Notes under the pieces: model-generated
What the model was told of the DNA's origin: nothing
Database searches by the model: none
What the model saw: the letters and a program-made list of their open reading frames with translations, nothing else
Shown: in pieces, positions 17,743 through 63,786 of the stretch
Position numbering within the stretch: position 1 is the first letter of the stretch
Layout of the letters: the number at the start of each line of letters is the position of its first letter
Source: Candidatus Latescibacterota bacterium
Lineage (GTDB): Bacteria > Latescibacterota > UBA2968 > UBA8231
Reading direction: 5' to 3'
DNA: 64,000 nucleotides
Assembly (NCBI GenBank): GCA_965242865.1
Contig: CBDETK010000013.1
Coordinates: forward strand, 5,536,001-5,600,000
Made by a program: the position numbers and the translations under genes

Positions 17743-17876
17743 GAAGCGTTCTTAAAACTAGGGTTTCGGTCTCTGATTCGGCTTGGTCCTTTGCTGGATT
17801 CCCGCTTGCGCGGGAATGACCGTACGAGTCGTCATGCAAGACTAGCCAAAAGCAACATGAGTTTTAAGAACGCTTC
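17743..17876 (+). mobile_element. MITE family B (IS5-type ends), intact copy, TAA target duplication
   Basis: Perfect 17-bp TIR GAAGCGTTCTTAAAACT; TAA at 17740-42 and 17877-79; TIR matches the IS5 element at 62671 in 15/17 positions. Confidence 0.9.
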
Positions 17877-19828
17877 TAAGGTTCCTCGGCGGTGAGTCGC
17901 TGGTTGGTCTGGATCGGGCCGTCCCAGGTCTGCACCTGACCCGAGGGCCAGCGCACCGTTAGGCGATCCACCGCCGTCGCCGTCCCCAAGCCAAAGTAGA
18001 GTCCCCAAGCACTCTGCGACAGATACCCGGACTGCCCATCCTGCACTTGGGTATATACCTGATCCCCGGCTCGTACTGCGACCACTGCGCCCAACCCATC
18101 TCGGTTCGACGATTTCCCCACCAGCACCACTTCCAAGTAGCGCAACTCCGTCTGCCGCTGACTTAGGTCGCTGAGCAAGACCTGCGGCACGCCATTGAAC
18201 TCGTTGGTCACAATGTCGAGATCGCCATCGCCCTCCACGTCGAACAGCGCGGACGAGCGCGTCCCCAAAGCGCCGTACACCAGCAAGCCGCCCTGTTGGC
18301 CCTCGCAGTTTTTGTGCTCCCGATCCGCCCCATCGCAGTCGAGGGCGAACCACGGCTGCGCGGTCCGACCGTGGCGGCGCGGCTCCACCCCTAAGACGAA
18401 CTCGCTGTCGAGGAAACCGCGCCCTCGGTCGTTGAGCAAGACGGTGTTGATGCCGTAGCGAAAGGGGTAATTCATGCTCGCCGCCACGAACACATCCTGC
18501 CAGCCATCGGCGTTGAGATCGCCGCTGCTCACCCCCCACGGCCAATAATTCTCCGCGCCGATTAGGTCGGAGATTTCTTCAAACCGCCCCTCGCCTATAT
18601 GGTGGTAAAAGGCGTTGCCGAAGATGCTCTGCCCGTCGCTCCGCAAAAAATCTTCTGGATACTGCATGTACGCCTTGAGCTTTTCGTCCCAAGGCCCGAC
18701 CGGCTGACTCATGTCGGAGTGCATGTCCGAGATGAAGAGATCCAGCCGGCTGTCGTTGTCGTAGTCGAGGGCCTTGATCCCCATCGCTCCCCACGGCGTT
18801 TTGGGGAACAGCACCCGGCTCTTTTTAATGAAATGCTGCCCGGCCGCGTTTTCGTAGTAGGCGTCGTGCCCCTGCATGTTGAGCACGTAGAGGTCCTGCC
18901 AGCCGTCGCCGTTGAAATCCACCGGACTGGCGTCGCCCGACCAGCTCGAATCCAACAACCCCACTTGGCGGGAGACCTCGGCGAACACCCGCTGCCCCAG
19001 ATTTTTGAACAACGCGCTCTGCTCGGCGCGCTCGGGCTTCAAATGCCCAGAGAAGGCATCCTTGAAACCTCGGTAGTACTGATAGGTCGCCCCCTCCTCC
19101 AGCCGCGTGGGATCGACCGCGGCCGTCCGCTTTTCGTCTTGGGTGTAGATTCCCACATTGGTCACAAACAGGTCTAGCAACCCATCGTTATCGTAGTCGA
19201 AGAACTCACCGGACGACGAGTGCGCCTGCCAGCCCGTGCCCGAATGCTCGGTTGCGTCCTCAAAGCGGCCAGCCCCGTCGTTGACCAAGAGCCGATTGCC
19301 CAACCGCACCGCGGTCGCGTACAGATCGATGTCGCCGTCGTTGTCAATGTCGCCAAACGACGCGCTGACCCCGATCCGGTCGGCCAGCTCCAGACTCGAC
19401 GTAGTGTGGTTTGCAAACCGCGCTCCCCCGAGATTGCGCCACAACTGATTGCTGCCCACTTGGGTCGTAAAGTAGAGGTCGTAGCGTCCATCGCCATCCA
19501 CGTCCCCCACCGCCAGCCCATTGCCGTGGTCGTAGTGGACCGGGATGTGGTCCTTGCCCGAATCCGCCACCACCCGATTGCGAAACGCAATGCCGCTGGC
19601 TGCGAGTTGGTCGGTAAAGGAGAAATCGCAAAAGACCGCGTAGGCTTGGGCGGCCTCCAACTGGGCTTGCTGGCGACGCGCCAACCAAGGAGGCTCGACG
19701 ATGGCGGCCGGCTCGGGAAAGGGCTTGAGCAGGGTTGCCGACCGGTCGGATTCAGCGCGGGCAATGGTTGAGGGAGCGAGCGCGAGAATGCACAGCGCAG
19801 TGAGAAAAGCCGCCTGACAATTGGACAT
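17876..19828 (-). CDS. CRTAC1-family protein (FG-GAP + ASPIC/UnbV)
   Basis: Signal peptide from MSNCQAAF; DVDGDG/DYDNDG repeats; NRDGLG...YFGLG...WPSG. Confidence 0.9.
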   Translation of the reverse strand: MSNCQAAFLTALCILALAPSTIARAESDRSATLLKPFPEPAAIVEPPWLARRQQAQLEAAQAYAVFCDFSFTDQLAASGIAFRNRVVADSGKDHIPVHYDHGNGLAVGDVDGDGRYDLYFTTQVGSNQLWRNLGGARFANHTTSSLELADRIGVSASFGDIDNDGDIDLYATAVRLGNRLLVNDGAGRFEDATEHSGTGWQAHSSSGEFFDYDNDGLLDLFVTNVGIYTQDEKRTAAVDPTRLEEGATYQYYRGFKDAFSGHLKPERAEQSALFKNLGQRVFAEVSRQVGLLDSSWSGDASPVDFNGDGWQDLYVLNMQGHDAYYENAAGQHFIKKSRVLFPKTPWGAMGIKALDYDNDSRLDLFISDMHSDMSQPVGPWDEKLKAYMQYPEDFLRSDGQSIFGNAFYHHIGEGRFEEISDLIGAENYWPWGVSSGDLNADGWQDVFVAASMNYPFRYGINTVLLNDRGRGFLDSEFVLGVEPRRHGRTAQPWFALDCDGADREHKNCEGQQGGLLVYGALGTRSSALFDVEGDGDLDIVTNEFNGVPQVLLSDLSQRQTELRYLEVVLVGKSSNRDGLGAVVAVRAGDQVYTQVQDGQSGYLSQSAWGLYFGLGTATAVDRLTVRWPSGQVQTWDGPIQTNQRLTAEEP

Positions 19829-25613: not shown

Positions 25614-27344
25614 ATGGCGAGAGCAAACGAAAACATTCGCTACGAGCCGGACGAGCGCCCCCCCCACTCGGTCGCCGCTGGCGTCGGCTTTCAGGCTGCG
25701 GTGGTCATCATCGCGCCGGTGGTGCTCAGCGCGGTCATTATTGGTCGGGCGGCCAATCAGCCGGAGAGCTACCTGACGTGGATCGCCTTCGCGGCCCTGC
25801 TGGTCAGTGGAACGAGCACGATTCTACAAGCGGCCCGGCTCGGGCGGGTCGGGGCCGGGCACGTGCTCATTATGGGCACCTCTGGAGCCTTCATCGCGGT
25901 CTGCATCACGGCCTTGGTGAAGGGCGGACCGTCCCTGATGGCGAGCCTGATCGTGGTGTCGTCGCTGTTTCAGTTTGCGCTGGCCGCCCGGCTTTCACTG
26001 CTGCGCCGGATTATCACGCCGGTGGTCGCCGGCACGGTGATCATGCTCATCGCCGTCACGGTCATGCCGATCGTGTTCGACTTGCTGGAGGACGTGCCCG
26101 AAGACCTGTCGTCGGCCGCGGCGCCGGCCACGGCCGGGGCGACGCTCGCGACGCTTGTGGCGTTGGCCCTGTGCGCTCCGGTGAGTTGGCGATTATGGGC
26201 ACCGCTCATCAGCATCGTGGTGGGCTGCGCGGTGGCCGCCCCGTTTGGCCTGTACGACATTCAGCCCGTACTCGAAGCGTCTTGGATCGGTTTTCCCGCT
26301 AACGAGTGGCCGGGGTTGGACCTGAATTTTAGCGCGGAGTTCTGGGCGTTGCTGCCAGCGTTTGTGGTCGTCACCATGGTTGGCGCGATCGAGACCATTG
26401 GCGACGGCGTCGCCATTCAGCGGGTCTCACGGCGTCGGCCGCGGGCCACTGATTTTCGCCTAGTCCAAGGCGCACTCAACGCCGATGGCATGGGCAACCT
26501 GTTGTCCGGGCTGATCGGGACGCCCCCCAATACGACTTACTCTAGCAGTATATCGCTCGCCGAACTCACCGGGGTCGCCGCGCGCCGCGTCGGGGTGTAC
26601 GTCGGGGCCATCTTTGTGGTGCTGGCCTTATCGCCCAAGGTGACGGCCCTCCTGATCGCCATTCCCAATCCCGTCGGGGCGGCTTATGTCACCCTGCTAA
26701 TAGGTCTGCTTTTCGTGCAAGGGATGAAATTGATCGTTGAGGACGGTCTCAATCACCGCAAGGCCACGGTGGTGGGGCTGTCGTTCTGGCTCGGCGTAGG
26801 CTTTCAGAATCAGGTGATTTTCGCCGACTTGCTGAGCGGGACGTGGGGCACTCTGCTCGGCAACGGCATGACCGCTGGCTGTCTTACGGCGATTGTGTTG
26901 ACCGCATTCATGGAGCTAATGGCTGCGCGTCGCCGACGCCTAGAGGTCGAGTTAGCCAGCACCTCCATGCCCAAAATCGACGAATTCCTCCGCGCCTTTG
27001 CCGCGAAAGTCGGCTGGGACGATGCGGCGACTGAGCGGCTGCGCGCCACCGGCGAAGAGACCTTGGCGATTCTGACCCAACAAGCGGGAGACGATGCGGC
27101 CGCGCACGGCCGGCACTTGATCCTCACCGCACGGCCGGCCGAAGGGTCGGTGGAGTTGGAGTTTTTGGCCGCGGTCGCCGGAGAAAATCTCGAAGATCGG
27201 CTGGCGTTCCTGAGCGAACAGCCCGAGATACTAGACGAAAGCGAGGTTTCGTTTCGCCTGTTGCGGCACTACGCCTCTTCGGTGCGGCACCAGAAATACC
27301 ACGACCTAGACATCATTGCGGTGCAGGTCGAGCGCGCGCCTTAA
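25614..27344 (+). CDS. NCS2 (xanthine/uracil permease) family transporter with an extra C-terminal soluble domain
   Basis: YEPDERPP, MGTSGAF, ITPVVAGTVI, IETIGD, GALNADG, TTYS. Confidence 0.85.
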   Translation: MARANENIRYEPDERPPHSVAAGVGFQAAVVIIAPVVLSAVIIGRAANQPESYLTWIAFAALLVSGTSTILQAARLGRVGAGHVLIMGTSGAFIAVCITALVKGGPSLMASLIVVSSLFQFALAARLSLLRRIITPVVAGTVIMLIAVTVMPIVFDLLEDVPEDLSSAAAPATAGATLATLVALALCAPVSWRLWAPLISIVVGCAVAAPFGLYDIQPVLEASWIGFPANEWPGLDLNFSAEFWALLPAFVVVTMVGAIETIGDGVAIQRVSRRRPRATDFRLVQGALNADGMGNLLSGLIGTPPNTTYSSSISLAELTGVAARRVGVYVGAIFVVLALSPKVTALLIAIPNPVGAAYVTLLIGLLFVQGMKLIVEDGLNHRKATVVGLSFWLGVGFQNQVIFADLLSGTWGTLLGNGMTAGCLTAIVLTAFMELMAARRRRLEVELASTSMPKIDEFLRAFAAKVGWDDAATERLRATGEETLAILTQQAGDDAAAHGRHLILTARPAEGSVELEFLAAVAGENLEDRLAFLSEQPEILDESEVSFRLLRHYASSVRHQKYHDLDIIAVQVERAP

Positions 27345-27508
27345 GAAGCGGTCTGCAAACTCTGGTGGACTACTTCTTGAAGTCCGTCGCGCTGTTTTTT
27401 CTTTTAGTGTTTACCTTCGGACTACTGCACTGGCAGTCTCAGTACTTTGTTGACACTCTCGAAATTTTAGCCAGATATTCCCAATGGTACAAACCGGAGG
27501 CGATTGCT

Positions 27509-27787
27509 ATGTCCGATCTGAGTGACCGTGTAGGTCGTATAGAGGGGGAACTCAATCATCTAGCGACAAAATCGGATTTGGTCCAGGTGGAGGCCGAGGT
27601 GAAGGCTGAGTTGGCCGAGGTGAAGGCTGAGTTGGCCGAGGTGAAGACTGAGTTGCTTGTGCAAATAGCTTCAATCGAAGGGCAACTGAGTATCTTGATT
27701 TGGGCGATCCCTATCGCTGTTGCTATTGTTTCTTTACTTATGCAGTGGGCCGCTCCCTATCTGTTTCAGCGTAAGAGCCAGACATAA
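27509..27787 (+). CDS. Small coiled-coil protein with C-terminal TM anchor (DUF1640/CCDC90-like)
   Basis: GGAGG RBS; LATKSDL motif; heptad repeats; hydrophobic tail. Confidence 0.7.
   Translation: MSDLSDRVGRIEGELNHLATKSDLVQVEAEVKAELAEVKAELAEVKTELLVQIASIEGQLSILIWAIPIAVAIVSLLMQWAAPYLFQRKSQT
27593..27655 (+). repeat. 3 x 21-bp tandem repeat encoding AEVKAEL heptads
   Basis: gccgaggtgaaggctgagttg x3 (one mismatch). Confidence 0.9.
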
Positions 27788-27906
27788 GGACAAGGCGGTT
27801 GACGTAATGAACGAGACGATGGTTAAGCATTTCACATCAGGCAGGGGTCTTGCTGTGGGGCAAAACCCTGTTGGGTGCTTGGAATCGTCGTCAAATTTAA
27901 TGTGTC

Positions 27907-27948
27907 GTAAGTCCTTGAAAAACAACGACTTACCCCCCCCCCCCCCCC
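27907..27948. repeat. Imperfect palindrome GTAAGTC-cTTG...CAAc-GACTTAC followed by a C16 homopolymer
   Basis: Directly visible; C run at 27933-27948. Confidence 0.85.
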
Positions 27949-27960
27949 GAAAATTCTCCG

Positions 27961-28206
27961 CTAGCACCAAGCACTAAACGCTCTACTTTTCTGCATCGGC
28001 CGACGGATCGTGCGCGGCTGTTGGGCGTCGCGTCGGTCTGGCCGCACGATCCCAAGCGCACGCGACCGTGCGGCCTTTATGATCTAGCACTAAGCACCAC
28101 ACTCTCCACTTCTCAGCATCGGCCGACGGATCGTGTGCGGCCATTGGGCGTCGCGTCGATCTGGCCGCACGATCCCAAGCGCACGCGACCGTGCGGCCTT
28201 TATGCT
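27961..28206. repeat. Two tandem 123-bp direct repeats with internal stems
   Basis: 27961-28083 and 28084-28206 align with few mismatches. Confidence 0.9.
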
Positions 28207-28424
28207 GATCCACGTTTACTGCACGACCCCCGCAACCCGTCTGCCAAAAACCGAGGGCGGAATCTCCTCGCCCCGGACGCCGCCAGAACACTAGCAAAGA
28301 CGCACCCAAAGCAAGGGGCGCGTACTGAGTGCTCCAAGCATAGCCCTAGGGCTAACTCCGCCTCTTTGGGTGCGTCATGCCTCTCTTCCAATCTCCACAC
28401 CATATCCATACAAAGGAGCGAAAA

Positions 28425-30179
28425 ATGTCTTTGTTGAAATCGACAAAAACCCTGCTTGCGTTCGTCCTTTTGGGCGTCGTCGGCACTTGGATCGGCTGCT
28501 CAGACTCCGCGCCGGTCGCTTCTCGGCCAGCGGGCAAAGCCACCTGTTCCTTATGCGAATTCTTGGGCGACGACACCTACACCGCTACCGACGGGCTGCC
28601 CGCCCCGGAAAGCCCTGATACCACCCAGACCGACGCCGAAGCCGACAGTACACAAGCCGAGACCGACGCTGACGCCGATAGCACTCAATCGGCCACCGTG
28701 GAGTTTGCCGACGCCAATCTGGAGCGGGCGGTGCGAGAGGCGTTGGACCGCCCGTCAGGGCCGCTGACCCCGGCAGACTTGGCGGCCCTAACCGAACTCG
28801 ACGCGAGCTACAAAAACATTGAGAGCGTGGCCGGCCTCGAACACGCAACAGCACTGACAACGCTGTATCTGCGGGGCAACGCGATTACCGACGTGCAGCC
28901 GTTGGCCAGCTTGACCAACCTTCAAACGTTGTCGCTGTGGGGCAACAAGGTGGCGGATGCGAGTCCGCTGGCCAGCCTGATCCGCTTACGTACGCTGGAT
29001 ATGTGGGGCAACGCGATTACCGACGTCAGTCCGTTAGCTCGCCTAACGAACCTGCAATTTCTCCAGCTAGGGGACAACGCGATTGCGGACGTGAGTCCGT
29101 TGGCGAGCCTGACGAACCTGCGATGGCTGGGCGTGATGGAAAACGCCCTCAGCCAGCACGCAGCCAACCAACAACTCGCCGCCGCGATAACAAGCGGCCT
29201 CCGCGTCGTAGCGGTACTAGAAAAATACCCCCGCGTCGAAACCGTCCAAGTCTATCCAGAGCTGCCGGAACCGACATACGCACGCCCCGCCATATACTTC
29301 ACGGACGATGACAGGGGATCATATACAGATGAAAATGACAGACAGTCTCGGATTTGGCGTGCCAACTTGGATGGCACAGGCGACCAATCCTTCGTCCTCC
29401 CTGTAGAATATGCTGAAGGACCTTTTGGACCCGAAGCCCAAGGAAGTCATCCAACAGGCATCGCGGTGGATGTGGTGAACAGAAAGATATACTGGACGGA
29501 CGGGGTCCTAAGCGCTTCGATACGGCGTTCCAACTTGGATGGCAAAGGCACGGAAACCCTCGTCTCGGGATTGGGGACGACAGCGGGCATCGCGCTGGAT
29601 GTGGAGAATGGAAAGATATACTGGATGAATGCGGATACTCTTGGGTCTTTCAACTTGGAGGACAGAGACCGCCAAAACCTCGTCATCGATGACTTGAATG
29701 AGCCAGCCAGCATCGCGCTGGACGTGGAGAATAGAAAGATATACTGGACGAACTGGGGCGAAGATAAGATTGAGTATGCCAACTTGGATGGGGATGGCGG
29801 TGTCTCAAGCCGCCAAGAATTCCTTGCGAGTGCTATGAATGGCGATCCGGCCGATTGGGCATCGGGCCTCGCGCTGGATGGGGTGAACAGAAAGATATAC
29901 TGGGTGACTTACTCGCGCGATTCGATGGATTCGGATCGGAGCAAAATTATGTGGGCCAACTTGGCTGGGGATGGCTCATTGGATGGGGGCGCCCAAGACT
30001 GCATCACCACGGGGTTGACGACGGCATGGGGCCTCGCGGTGGATGCGGCGGGCGGAAAGATATACTGGGTGGACAGGGCCGCGCGGACGGTTGGGCGCGC
30101 CAACTTGGATTGCTCAGAACAAGAAGACATCATCACGGGGTTGCGATTTCCACTGTACATCGCGCTGGGTGTTTGGTAG
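28425..30179 (+). CDS. Lipoprotein with internalin-type LRRs and an LDL-receptor class B (YWTD) beta-propeller
   Basis: AAGGAG RBS; WIGC lipobox; FADANLE.AVR cap; L..L.L.GN.I.DV.PLA.L repeats; GIALD...KIYW(T)D repeats. Confidence 0.9.
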   Translation: MSLLKSTKTLLAFVLLGVVGTWIGCSDSAPVASRPAGKATCSLCEFLGDDTYTATDGLPAPESPDTTQTDAEADSTQAETDADADSTQSATVEFADANLERAVREALDRPSGPLTPADLAALTELDASYKNIESVAGLEHATALTTLYLRGNAITDVQPLASLTNLQTLSLWGNKVADASPLASLIRLRTLDMWGNAITDVSPLARLTNLQFLQLGDNAIADVSPLASLTNLRWLGVMENALSQHAANQQLAAAITSGLRVVAVLEKYPRVETVQVYPELPEPTYARPAIYFTDDDRGSYTDENDRQSRIWRANLDGTGDQSFVLPVEYAEGPFGPEAQGSHPTGIAVDVVNRKIYWTDGVLSASIRRSNLDGKGTETLVSGLGTTAGIALDVENGKIYWMNADTLGSFNLEDRDRQNLVIDDLNEPASIALDVENRKIYWTNWGEDKIEYANLDGDGGVSSRQEFLASAMNGDPADWASGLALDGVNRKIYWVTYSRDSMDSDRSKIMWANLAGDGSLDGGAQDCITTGLTTAWGLAVDAAGGKIYWVDRAARTVGRANLDCSEQEDIITGLRFPLYIALGVW

Positions 30180-30327
30180 GCATGGAGGTTCACCTGCCCG
30201 GCTGGCATGGCGTTGAGGCGACGGGCTAAAGCCGAGCGGGAAGGACAGCGACCGCCTCTACGGCTTGTTCAAAACGACCCAAGGTAGAATTTGCGGAGCA
30301 GACCGCTTCTAACCCCCTCCGAACCCA

Positions 30328-31380
30328 TTAGAAGGTGCGCCGGACGAGAAAGTCGAGCATCTCGCCCAGCATGTCGCGCGCGGGGTTGGCCGGAAGCCGC
30401 GCGAGGTGCGCCCAGCTCTCTTCGGCCTTCTGCTCGCACACCCGCTCGACGTAGCGGTCACATTCGTAGTGCTCGACCAAGGCGATGACGCGCTCGATCT
30501 CAGCGACCGTGTTGCGCTGCCGCTCTTGGTGCAAGATCGCCAGCACTTCCGCGCGCTCGGCCGCCGTGCATTTGCCCAACAGGTCGATGATGATCAAGGT
30601 CCGCTTCCCCTCGGCAATATCCCCACCCCGCTCCTTGCCGTAGGCCCCGGAGGTAATCCCGGGTGCAGACCCGGCGTCTTGCTCGGAAGAGCGCATGTTC
30701 AGCAGGTCGTCGCGGAGCTGGAACGCGATGGCCATGGCCTCGCCAAAGTCGCCGATACCAGCGCGCAACTCCGCGTTGGCGCCGGCGATAATCGCCCCGG
30801 CCGTACACGGCCCCCGGCCAGTGTACCACCCGGTCTTTTTGCGCAACATGGTCATAAACTCGGCCTCGCTGGGAATGTAGCGATGGCGAATCCAGCCGAC
30901 GTCATACGCCTGCCCCTCAAACGTCTCGCACGAGCCGCGGATCATCTCGTCCATCAAATCGAGCGCGACCTTTGCTCCCAACCCCTCGCGGTTCGCGCAG
31001 AGGATTTCAAAGACCTTGGCGTATAGGGCATCGCCGACGTTGATGGACAATGGGATGCCGTGCAGCTTGTGCAAACAGGGCTTGCCGCGCCGCAGCTCGG
31101 AATCGTCTTCAATGTCGTCGTGGACCACGGCAAATGACTGAAACATCTCAAAGGCCACGGCCGTCCGCATGGCTTTCTTCACGTCGCCGCCGCAGGCTTG
31201 GCACGCCAAGAGCACCAGCACCGGGCGAAAGCGCTTGCCGCCGCGCTCCGGGTAGTCGCGCATCAGCCGATATAGAAATGCTTCGGGCTCGCGCACGACG
31301 AGGAACGACAGCAGCTCCTCTTCTAGCTTTGGAACGTAGTGGTGCAAAAATTGGCGCAAGCCTTGGACAACCGCAGCCAT
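30328..31380 (-). CDS. Polyprenyl (GGPP/FPP) synthetase
   Basis: GGKRFRP, HDDIED..ELRRG, KKT, FQLRDD, DIAEGK. Confidence 0.9.
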   Translation of the reverse strand: MAAVVQGLRQFLHHYVPKLEEELLSFLVVREPEAFLYRLMRDYPERGGKRFRPVLVLLACQACGGDVKKAMRTAVAFEMFQSFAVVHDDIEDDSELRRGKPCLHKLHGIPLSINVGDALYAKVFEILCANREGLGAKVALDLMDEMIRGSCETFEGQAYDVGWIRHRYIPSEAEFMTMLRKKTGWYTGRGPCTAGAIIAGANAELRAGIGDFGEAMAIAFQLRDDLLNMRSSEQDAGSAPGITSGAYGKERGGDIAEGKRTLIIIDLLGKCTAAERAEVLAILHQERQRNTVAEIERVIALVEHYECDRYVERVCEQKAEESWAHLARLPANPARDMLGEMLDFLVRRTF

Positions 31381-62670: not shown

Positions 62671-63594
62671 GAAGCCTTTTTAAAACTCCTTTTTTGCTTG
62701 GATTTGACGTTGGCGTACTCACCGCACCCCTTCAGGTTTCGCCTAAGACCCCTGAACGAAAGGTCTCCGATGAGTACGCCCTATCAATATCCGACCGACC
62801 TAACAGACGCGCCATGGCAGCGGCGGTCTCCCCTCGTACCCTCTCGTCGTTGGCGTCGGGGGGGTCCGGGTCGTCCTCCCCGTACTCTACGTTTGGTGCT
62901 CAATGGGATCCTCTATCGAGCTAAAACCGGCTGTCCGGGGCCGATGCTACCGCCGACGTTTGGCCCTTGGCAAACAGTGTATGGATACTTCAACCGCTGG
63001 CGACGAGCCGGACCCTGGCAGCGGATGTTGGACGCCTTGACCCGCCAACAGCGCACCCGACAAGGCCGCCGGCCAACCCCTTCGGCCGGCGGCATCGACG
63101 CCCAGCGTGTCAAGACCGCCACGCAAGGCCGAGCTATAGGGTACGACGCCGGGAAACGGGTCAAAGGGCGCAAACGCCACCTGTTCGTCGATAGCCAAGG
63201 CTCGATCCTACAAGGCAAGGTCACCGCCGCCGATGGCTCCGACGCCGACGGCTTAAAGGCCCTGTTGAGGGACTATTTCTCCGCTGGCGTCCAACGGCTG
63301 AGAAGCGTGTGGGTCGATGCCGGCTACCGAGGGGAGGCACTTAACGCATGGGGCGCCAACTTAAAAAAAACCTATAAAATCCGATTGGAGGGCAGCGAAA
63401 AACCACGCCCCGGCTTTACCCTACTCAAGCGCCGATGGGTCGTAGAACGAACCTTTGCTTGGTTGGGCAACTATCGTATCCACGCCAAAGATTATGAGAT
63501 CGTAACCGACAATAGCCAAGCCTTTATACACATCGTTATGATCCATCTGTTGCTCAAGCGAAAAAACAAAGAAAAAGAGTTTTAAAAAGGCTTC
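62671..63594 (+). mobile_element. IS5-family insertion sequence (924 bp)
   Basis: Perfect 18-bp TIR GAAGCCTTTTTAAAACTC; TAA duplicated at 62668-70 and 63595-97. Confidence 0.92.
62770..63585 (+). CDS. IS5-family transposase (some conserved residues look substituted)
   Basis: YPTDLTD, GYDAGKRVKGRKRH..VD..G, WVDAGY, RWVVERTFAW. Confidence 0.88.
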   Translation: MSTPYQYPTDLTDAPWQRRSPLVPSRRWRRGGPGRPPRTLRLVLNGILYRAKTGCPGPMLPPTFGPWQTVYGYFNRWRRAGPWQRMLDALTRQQRTRQGRRPTPSAGGIDAQRVKTATQGRAIGYDAGKRVKGRKRHLFVDSQGSILQGKVTAADGSDADGLKALLRDYFSAGVQRLRSVWVDAGYRGEALNAWGANLKKTYKIRLEGSEKPRPGFTLLKRRWVVERTFAWLGNYRIHAKDYEIVTDNSQAFIHIVMIHLLLKRKNKEKEF

Positions 63595-63786
63595 TAAGCA
63601 TTGTAAATCGGCACTTCAAAAGACGAATCCGCCCCGTGATCGGGCTGCGAGTTTTGGCAAATTTTGTTCAAATGTTCAAAATTTGCCAAATTTTGGACTG
63701 TGGTGTGAGTCACACCCACCGCATCCGCGATCACTTGCTGCGTATAACACGCCAAGAACAGAGCCGCTTAGACAACTATATAAGCC

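Follow-up and report, generated by a model that had tools for sequence, protein, structure and literature searches.

Mobile insertion cassettes (MICs) combine the inverted repeats of an insertion sequence (IS) with passenger genes, encode no transposase, and are moved by a cognate transposase, as set out in the available part of PMC3129680. MIC231 of Bacillus cereus, which is mobilised by the transposase of IS231A, is cited in the accessible text of PMC4337579. According to the same text, the TALE genes of Xanthomonas spread as MICs with the inverted repeats of TnXax1, a member of the Tn3 family (PMC4337579). Here, we describe a transposase-less segment of 2965 bp (27345-30309) in a 64,000-nucleotide stretch of DNA, the window, from a Candidatus Latescibacterota bacterium. 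The segment lies between a permease gene and a polyprenyl synthase gene, and carries the gene of a putative eukaryote-like lipoprotein with leucine-rich repeats (LRRs) and YWTD repeats. We consider it probable that the segment belongs, as an altered member, to a family of about 30 MICs specific to this lineage, and that it is situated at a point of chromosomal rearrangement and not a clean insertion. Coordinates without a contig name are positions in the 64-kb window, C13 is the genome contig, and G000 denotes this genome.

The segment has the IS-family ends and passenger genes of a MIC, contains no transposase, and a cognate transposase is encoded elsewhere in the genome. Movement as a unit is indicated at three other loci of the family, but not for this copy. 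MIC231 has a target duplication typical of the IS, for which the TAA on both sides of the segment is a candidate counterpart. In contrast to MIC231, whose ends are of the IS4 family, the cassette ends described here belong to the IS5 family and have a TNA target. The frame here appears to be a miniature inverted-repeat transposable element (MITE) with a central hairpin, about 30 diverged copies are present in one genome, the cargo is an LRR-YWTD lipoprotein gene, and we infer mobilisation in trans from the sequence. Like the TALE MICs, the family places host-interaction-like repeat proteins in transposase-less cassettes; in both, many copies have a solo inverted repeat, and homogeneous right sides are combined with variable left sides. 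For the TALE MICs, the authors propose the use of alternative ends (accessible text of PMC4337579). The TALE MICs belong to the Tn3 type with a 5-bp target-site duplication (TSD), encode type III effectors of plant pathogens, and are often located on plasmids (same part of PMC4337579), whereas the cassettes described here are chromosomal, come from a sponge-associated bacterium, and encode predicted surface lipoproteins.

The IS5-family MITE at 17743-17877 has the same GAAGC termini and TAA flanks as the segment, and likewise needs a transposase in trans; the cassette ends correspond to two MITE halves. However, MITEs are short and non-coding, whereas the segment is 2965 bp long and contains two genes. 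Passenger genes also travel with IS ends in transporter IS (tIS) and in composite transposons (available part of PMC3129680). A tIS encodes its own transposase (same part of PMC3129680), whereas the segment encodes none, which also separates it from an autonomous IS5-family element with its own DDE transposase. Composite transposons are bounded by two whole IS copies (same part of PMC3129680), whereas the segment ends in 24 nt and about 75 nt of MITE sequence.

Predicted surface proteins with LRR and LDL-receptor class B domains have been reported from Poribacteria, which are sponge symbionts (available part of PMC3909097); the domain types, the predicted cell-surface location and the sponge habitat agree with those of the lipoprotein described here. 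The available part of PMC3909097 draws no tie between these genes and IS or MITE ends. Among the papers listed by full-text searches of the literature library used, none ties eukaryote-like proteins of sponge symbionts to MITE or MIC ends in its title or abstract. The MIC mechanism is already known from Bacillus and Xanthomonas; new are the host, the cargo and the scale, not the principle.

Ends and flanks of the segment

The segment starts directly behind a TAA (27342-27344, plus strand) that doubles as the stop codon of the permease ORF (25614-27344; Xan_ur_permease in Pfam). On the right, it is followed by a second TAA (30310-30312, plus strand) and, after 15 bp, by the stop codon of the polyprenyl synthase gene (30328-30330, minus strand). 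The left terminal repeat is a MITE end of the X type (27345-27368, plus strand), which retains the first 24 nt of an X part of about 47 nt. The right end is formed by a MITE half of the Y type with the terminal repeat at its end (30236-30309, minus strand), in a variant called type B, which has TCCGC after the 12-mer. The 12-mer GAAGCGGTCTGC at 27345-27356 has its reverse complement at 30298-30309, and a repeat search of the window delimited a pair of 13-nt arms with 100% complementarity (27344-27356 and 30298-30310). Past the 12-mer, the left arm continues with AAACTCT and the right arm with TCCGC and AAATTCT. The sequence-only reading, which had described a TAA-bounded segment with a perfect 12-bp terminal inverted repeat (TIR) extending across a 5-bp indel, is thus confirmed in these points.

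Deletion of the segment together with one TAA leaves the convergent permease and synthase stops 15 bp apart (30313-30327), again as had been read. Homology to the congeners, a comparison set of 20 genomes with about 87% identity at orthologous genes, ends at 27343 on the permease side and resumes at 30328/30329 on the synthase side. The TAA/TAA flanks prove little, since equal flanking triplets are expected by chance in 27% of random family-end pairs, and two independent family ends would match as often. The exact 12-mer is found twice in the window, and the 6.0-Mb genome has 22 occurrences; 18 of the 22, judged from the printed contexts, run on as IS- or MITE-type ends behind a TNA-like triplet.

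A family of about 30 cassettes

The part of the segment from 27796 to 30312 recurs about 30 times in the genome at 80-94% identity (blastn of the segment), and the copies are dispersed over the 5.6-Mb contig C13. By one chosen criterion, inward-facing ends are present on both sides of four copies, on the right only of six and on the left only of four, and 16 copies have neither. The two-ended copies other than the segment are located at C13 891246-893989, 1849832-1852364 and 1921095-1923536; the flanks of the four are TAA/TAA in three cases and CTA/TTA in one. The existence of further cargo-bearing end pairs, on which the sequence-only reading had made its proposal depend, is therefore established by three more two-ended LRR-YWTD copies.

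Because the copy with anchor 1175471 leaves MITE sequence for cargo only after the full 47-nt X part, and because the right parts of all cassettes rejoin the MITE at its central hairpin, the cassette reads as a MITE with its middle replaced by about 2.3 kb of cargo. A 20-nt type-B motif (up to 2 mismatches) has 17 matches in this genome and none in the 20 congeners. Fourteen of the matches are ends that face inward on whole or fragmentary copies of the LRR cassette, two lie in elements that abut a cassette, and one is unrelated. Family homology stops at the type-B terminus, followed by TAA or TTA, in 8/30 copies, a count that includes this copy from a separate reading, as the scan halted at its 123-bp duplication. 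An open frame of more than 500 aa is kept in at least 24 copies; the N-terminal half of the lipoprotein gene is conserved among the copies and the YWTD half is divergent. The burst of the family is old, because the copies differ by at least 4-6%.

Dispersal within the lineage

The 5' block of the cassette is matched 33 times in this genome, against 0-3 times per genome in the 20 congeners; the expansion of the family is confined to this lineage. At three loci of the family, congeners have a single TAA at the terminus of an element. In congeners G013 and G011, the single TAA is exactly where the left TIR of the copy at C13 891246-893989 begins. In congener G031, it is exactly at the right TIR terminus of the copy with anchor 2789619. 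At the third locus, where the copy at C13 1921095-1923536 is abutted by a 162-bp MITE, homology to G031 resumes at one TAA after the MITE terminus, and the collinear flanks are separated by 138 bp in G031 and by 2632 bp in this genome. The copies 891246 and 1921095 have the same derived left-end fusion in different flanks, each of them TAA/TAA. The TIR-precise empty sites, the shared fusion in different flanks, and the counts of 33 against 0-3 and 17 against 0 support the view that the family was dispersed by transposition in this lineage. The expectation of an empty site with a single TAA is thus borne out at these three loci, and not for the copy in the window.

The locus with the abutting MITE (L023, C13 1921095-1923701) contains a remnant end, the cassette, and the 162-bp MITE head to tail, with a single TAA between each. 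The array suggests repeated insertion into a TAA beside an existing end.

The copy in the window at a gene-order break

In this copy, family homology starts exactly at 27796. The usual sequence of about 230 bp left of this position, and the X part beyond 24 nt, are replaced by unique DNA and a small gene. Both the permease and the synthase gene are present in 11/20 congeners, and they are adjacent in 0/11. Their distance is at least 1.08 Mb in 8/8 single-contig congeners, and they are on different contigs in 3/3 fragmented genomes. The gene after the permease in congeners is the ortholog of a gene now at C13 2154605 (3/3 genomes examined), and the gene after the synthase is the ortholog of a gene now at C13 422462 (5/5 genomes examined). 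In this genome, the C13 422462 gene adjoins half a MITE (Y-type, C13 422326-422413). The C13 2154605 gene is 1.2 kb from a truncated cassette copy, and there is no TIR upstream of it. A rearrangement at the element is indicated because its two flanks lie more than 1 Mb apart in related species; that the element simply inserted between genes that were already neighbours is unlikely. The sequence-only reading had assumed an insertion into the permease-synthase intergenic site; with the genes apart in all 11 congeners that have both, and no empty site found among them, this part did not hold.

Synteny breaks are seen at three of the five cassette loci with compared flanks, namely at this copy and at those anchored at 2613186 and 4747851, but not at 891246-893989 or at anchor 2789619. 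No empty site is readable at anchors 2613186 and 4747851, the congener flanks being at different loci. As judged from these comparisons, the cassette family often coincides with breaks in gene order. Since the flanks of this copy are not neighbours in congeners, and two other cassettes are also at synteny breaks, we read the present arrangement as a probable product of rearrangement at the element. A simple reciprocal exchange between a cassette at the permease and a cassette at the synthase was considered and rejected, as the expected partner junctions were not found.

For the copies at C13 2610771-2613338 and 4747587-4750200 (L048 and L050), the flanks were seen at different loci in five congeners. 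The synthase stop is hit recurrently in the genus: G005 has a 29-bp remnant with the same 12-mer, and G012 and G013 have another insert of about 90 bp.

The assembly was checked with public sequence runs; those holding this sequence carry the label sponge metagenome. Short-read contigs of runs X6 and X7 bridge 26846-27621 at 100% identity, and a contig of run X9 bridges 26846-27829 with 24 differences, as in a strain diverged by about 2.4%. Contigs of up to 18 kb in X6, X7, X1 and X9 enter the synthase gene from 30283, so that they include the last 27 nt of the right end. In run X1, 27408-27608 is not covered, and the depth over 27207-27407 is only 0.75. Joints with a side of 20-30 nt within repeats were set aside. 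The permease-cassette-synthase arrangement is real, and it is older than the strain divergence, because it is present in the strain diverged by about 2.4%. An empty-site joint that skips the cassette, which had been proposed as a check, was seen in none of the four public runs, weak evidence since only contigs were used.

End types and the candidate helper element

Across the whole genome, a scan detected 54 such ends, which fall into two types. The X type runs on as ...AAACTCTGGTGG, and the Y type runs on through ...CTTGGG...GTTGAACAAGC; the type-B variant has TCCGC inserted after the 12-mer. The genome also contains small MITEs of the form X...Y, 133-209 bp in length, one of them at C13 2224650-2224782. 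Within the window, the MITE at 17743-17877 (135 bp) and a 927-bp IS at 62671-63597 have GAAGC termini and TAA flanks, and the statement that the segment has these in common with both was correct.

The closest match to the cassette ends is provided by the termini of a 931-bp IS, which is present in two 100% identical copies (C13 2853142-2854072 and 3345909-3346839) and in fragments. By hand count, the left end of the segment agrees with that of the 931-bp IS at 18/20 of the first nucleotides, and the right ends have the first 11 nt in common. The 931-bp IS has two ORFs of 167 and 124 aa with DUF4096 and DDE_Tnp_1 domains, and matches NF033580 (IS5 family). It is flanked by TAA/TAA in one copy and by TTA/TCA in the other. 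Elements of the IS427/IS1031-like subgroup of IS5 are about 0.9 kb long, have two overlapping or adjacent ORFs joined by frameshifting, and insert into TNA with a 3-bp duplication. The size of the 931-bp IS, its two ORFs and the TAA/TAA copy fit this description, the other copy being flanked by TTA/TCA; the 931-bp IS is a candidate member of the subgroup. From the likeness of its termini, the 931-bp IS is likely the helper element and the parent of the cassette ends. The 927-bp IS has three genome copies at 100, 96 and 95% identity. Two related IS5-family lineages coexist in this genome, because the 927-bp and 931-bp elements are only 65% identical. The assignment of the segment to IS5-family or MITE ends stands, with the agreement at the left end and MITE halves at both ends, and a cognate IS is present in the genome, although its two identical copies speak to presence and not activity. 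The closest transposase source is the 931-bp IS outside the window, and not the IS at 62671.

Ultra-short elements of 26-29 bp were also observed, which consist of one IS-type end and the last 5 nt of the other end. They are located at the synthase stop in congener G005 (L020, about 1210-1240), and abutting a cassette in this genome (C13 about 1111239-1111270). Such elements may be footprints of excision, or else minimal derivatives that arose by deletion.

Proposed origin and alternative explanations

We propose that the family was founded by a MITE of about 133 bp, derived from the 931-bp IS5-family IS, in which the central hairpin was swapped for about 2.3 kb that comprised the 5' block with its variable poly-C tract and the gene of the LRR-YWTD surface lipoprotein. 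The units would then have been moved in trans, most likely by an IS5-family DDE transposase inserting at TNA (mostly TAA) and duplicating that triplet. This copy retains ends that look functional, with the Y end complete and 24 nt left of the X end; its original left part would have been replaced by a duplicated gene of a small coiled-coil membrane protein. Recombination between two dispersed family members or MITEs would be the most likely cause of the rearrangement.

Several observations count against this proposal. Events between the congeners and this genome cannot be ordered, as the congeners are only about 87% identical. Each of the three empty sites departs from a clean joint on at least one side: there are 44 extra MITE-like bp on the right at 891246-893989, 22 bp are unmatched on the left at the 1921095 locus, and the insert at anchor 2789619 lacks a TIR and TSD on its left side and replaces 8 bp. 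Several MITE and IS pairs have unequal flanking triplets (CTA/TTA, TTA/TAA, TTA/TCA), and the type-B end holds 5 extra bases relative to the IS terminus, which may bear on its binding by the transposase. In 16/30 copies there is no recognisable inward-facing end, two of these having truncated Y ends, and the left ends vary, being of at least three kinds and having MITEs nested in them or abutting them. Nothing points to recent transposition, since no two copies are near-identical (the best agree at 96% over a 165-bp block, and at 92% or less over the gene). The reciprocal products of recombination for this copy were sought and could not be reconstructed, and the end beside the old neighbour of the synthase is of the Y type, whereas a simple two-element exchange predicts the X type.

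Alternatively, the entire 2965-bp unit could have inserted in a single transposition event at a TAA between a permease and a synthase gene already joined by an earlier, unrelated rearrangement. The perfect 12/13-bp TIR with its TAA/TAA flanks, the 18/20 match of the left 24 nt to the IS left end, the collinearity of the LRR gene and right end with full copies elsewhere, and the stop of congener homology within 1-2 bp of the left TIR all agree with such an insertion. It would nevertheless demand that both breakpoints of the rearrangement coincide with the later insertion site; the two genes are neighbours in none of the 11 congeners, the TAA/TAA match carries the chance level given above, and the contigs of the four public runs, weak evidence as they are, hold no empty-site joint. 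We regard a single insertion of this kind as rather unlikely. Still less probable is that the LRR-YWTD genes spread by segmental duplication and gene conversion, with the MITE ends being unrelated remnants of independent insertions at nearby TAA. The copies without recognisable inward-facing ends (16/30), the heterogeneous left sides crowded with nested or abutting MITEs, and the absence of near-identical copies are in line with this explanation, and a conserved N-terminal half beside a divergent C-terminal half fits recombination-driven evolution. Yet the type-B end is a shared derived feature almost confined to the cassettes (14/17 matches are their own ends), and family homology stops exactly at its terminus in 8/30 copies. 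The dispersal of the copies over the 5.6-Mb C13, the congeners that lack copies and in which, at three loci, one TAA coincides with a TIR terminus, and the fusion common to 891246 and 1921095 within different TAA/TAA flanks also argue against duplication.

We consider it hardly credible that the junctions arose in assembly by a false join across a multi-copy repeat. The cassette is indeed a repeat of about 30 copies, and the two regions it joins are distant from each other in every relative examined. However, independent short-read contigs bridge the left and 27796 junctions at 100% identity (X6, X7), the same junctions exist in the 2.4% diverged strain (X9), and contigs of up to 18 kb enter the synthase gene from the right end (X6, X7, X1, X9); the copies, moreover, differ by at least 6% and hence are distinguishable. 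An altered family member at a rearrangement point remains the reading that we prefer.

Sponge symbionts are rich in eukaryote-like repeat proteins, and the route by which such gene families expand has seldom been shown. The sequence described here reveals a concrete route, in which a MITE-framed, transposase-less cassette would have multiplied an LRR-YWTD gene about 30-fold in one lineage. From this route, mobilisation in trans by the 931-bp IS, presence/absence polymorphisms with TAA junctions, and a link between poly-C length and expression are to be expected. We tentatively suggest, as a possibility we rather doubt, that eukaryote-like surface proteins of a sponge symbiont may expand and diversify by means of IS5-family MICs, through one capture of an LRR-YWTD lipoprotein gene with a slippage-prone poly-C control region by a MITE, a burst to about 30 copies in one lineage, subsequently seeded rearrangements, and a second round of cargo capture at this locus. 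In the second round, the small membrane protein gene would have been acquired between the old right end and a 24-nt end serving as a surrogate.

Genes and sequence features within the segment

The cargo comprises a coiled-coil gene, a hairpin with a C16 tract, a 123-bp repeat, and the LRR-YWTD lipoprotein gene, all of which had been recognised in the sequence-only reading. Its statement that no transposase is inside was also right: Pfam and family profiles found no DDE or other transposase domain in either inner gene, these being the only two with a start signal, and the domains present are LRR_4 and Ldl_recept_b in one gene and nothing above threshold in the other. A terminator scan gave nothing convincing between the genes of the segment. 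An Rfam search of 27300-28500 at a permissive threshold returned a single weak match, Atu_L6, which was dismissed at 19.4 bits against a cut-off of 100.

The small coiled-coil gene (27509-27787, plus strand) encodes 92 aa with a hydrophobic C-terminal segment, and belongs to no Pfam family above threshold. Its most likely start is the ATG at 27509, with GGAGG 11 nt upstream, and not the GTG inside the TIR. A match to the sigma-70 consensus, TTGACA-18-GATATT (27450-27479, plus strand), is a candidate promoter upstream of the gene. The region 27369-27795 has a single, gene-only paralog in the genome (blastn), which stands alone at C13 1612177-1612416 with its own terminator and without TIRs. The small gene looks like captured cargo that was duplicated from this paralog. 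An in-frame repeat of three 21-bp units (27592-27654) lies inside the gene, and is not present in the paralog.

The family of small coiled-coil and transmembrane proteins has 14 tblastn matches in this genome, with members noted at 27509-27787, C13 4997884-4998072 and C13 863350-864570. The member at C13 4997884-4998072 is directly upstream of the LRR cassette copy with anchor 4997789; two tRNA-like genes adjoin it, and it has no TIRs. The two pairings of a small gene with an LRR cassette look non-random, by impression rather than by statistics.

The family-specific conserved 5' block (27796-28081, plus strand), where homology to the other copies begins, contains the C16 tract (27933-27948) with a short hairpin just before it. 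The tract varies between 5 and 20 C across the 30 copies, and is located about 360-480 bp upstream of the start codon. Its length variation, which is seen among paralogs only, suggests that it may be a slippage-prone control element, and as a phase switch it is no more than a candidate. A tandem duplication of 123 bp (27961-28204, plus strand) consists of two units that are 91% alike (27961-28081 and 28084-28204), with a GC-rich hairpin in each unit. It was not seen in the other copies, whose single unit aligns to both units here.

The putative lipoprotein (584 aa; 28425-30179, plus strand) matches LRR_4 at 2.5e-29 and Ldl_recept_b at 5.4e-19 in Pfam. It is composed of a signal peptide that ends in the lipobox-like WIGC, an acidic linker, internalin-type LRRs, and YWTD or LDL-receptor class B repeats. 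Matches to internalin families are partial and all below cut-off. Among the matches listed, its nearest relatives are paralogs from the same genome, with 56-87% identity. A repeat of two 33-bp units (28624-28689) is located in the acidic linker.

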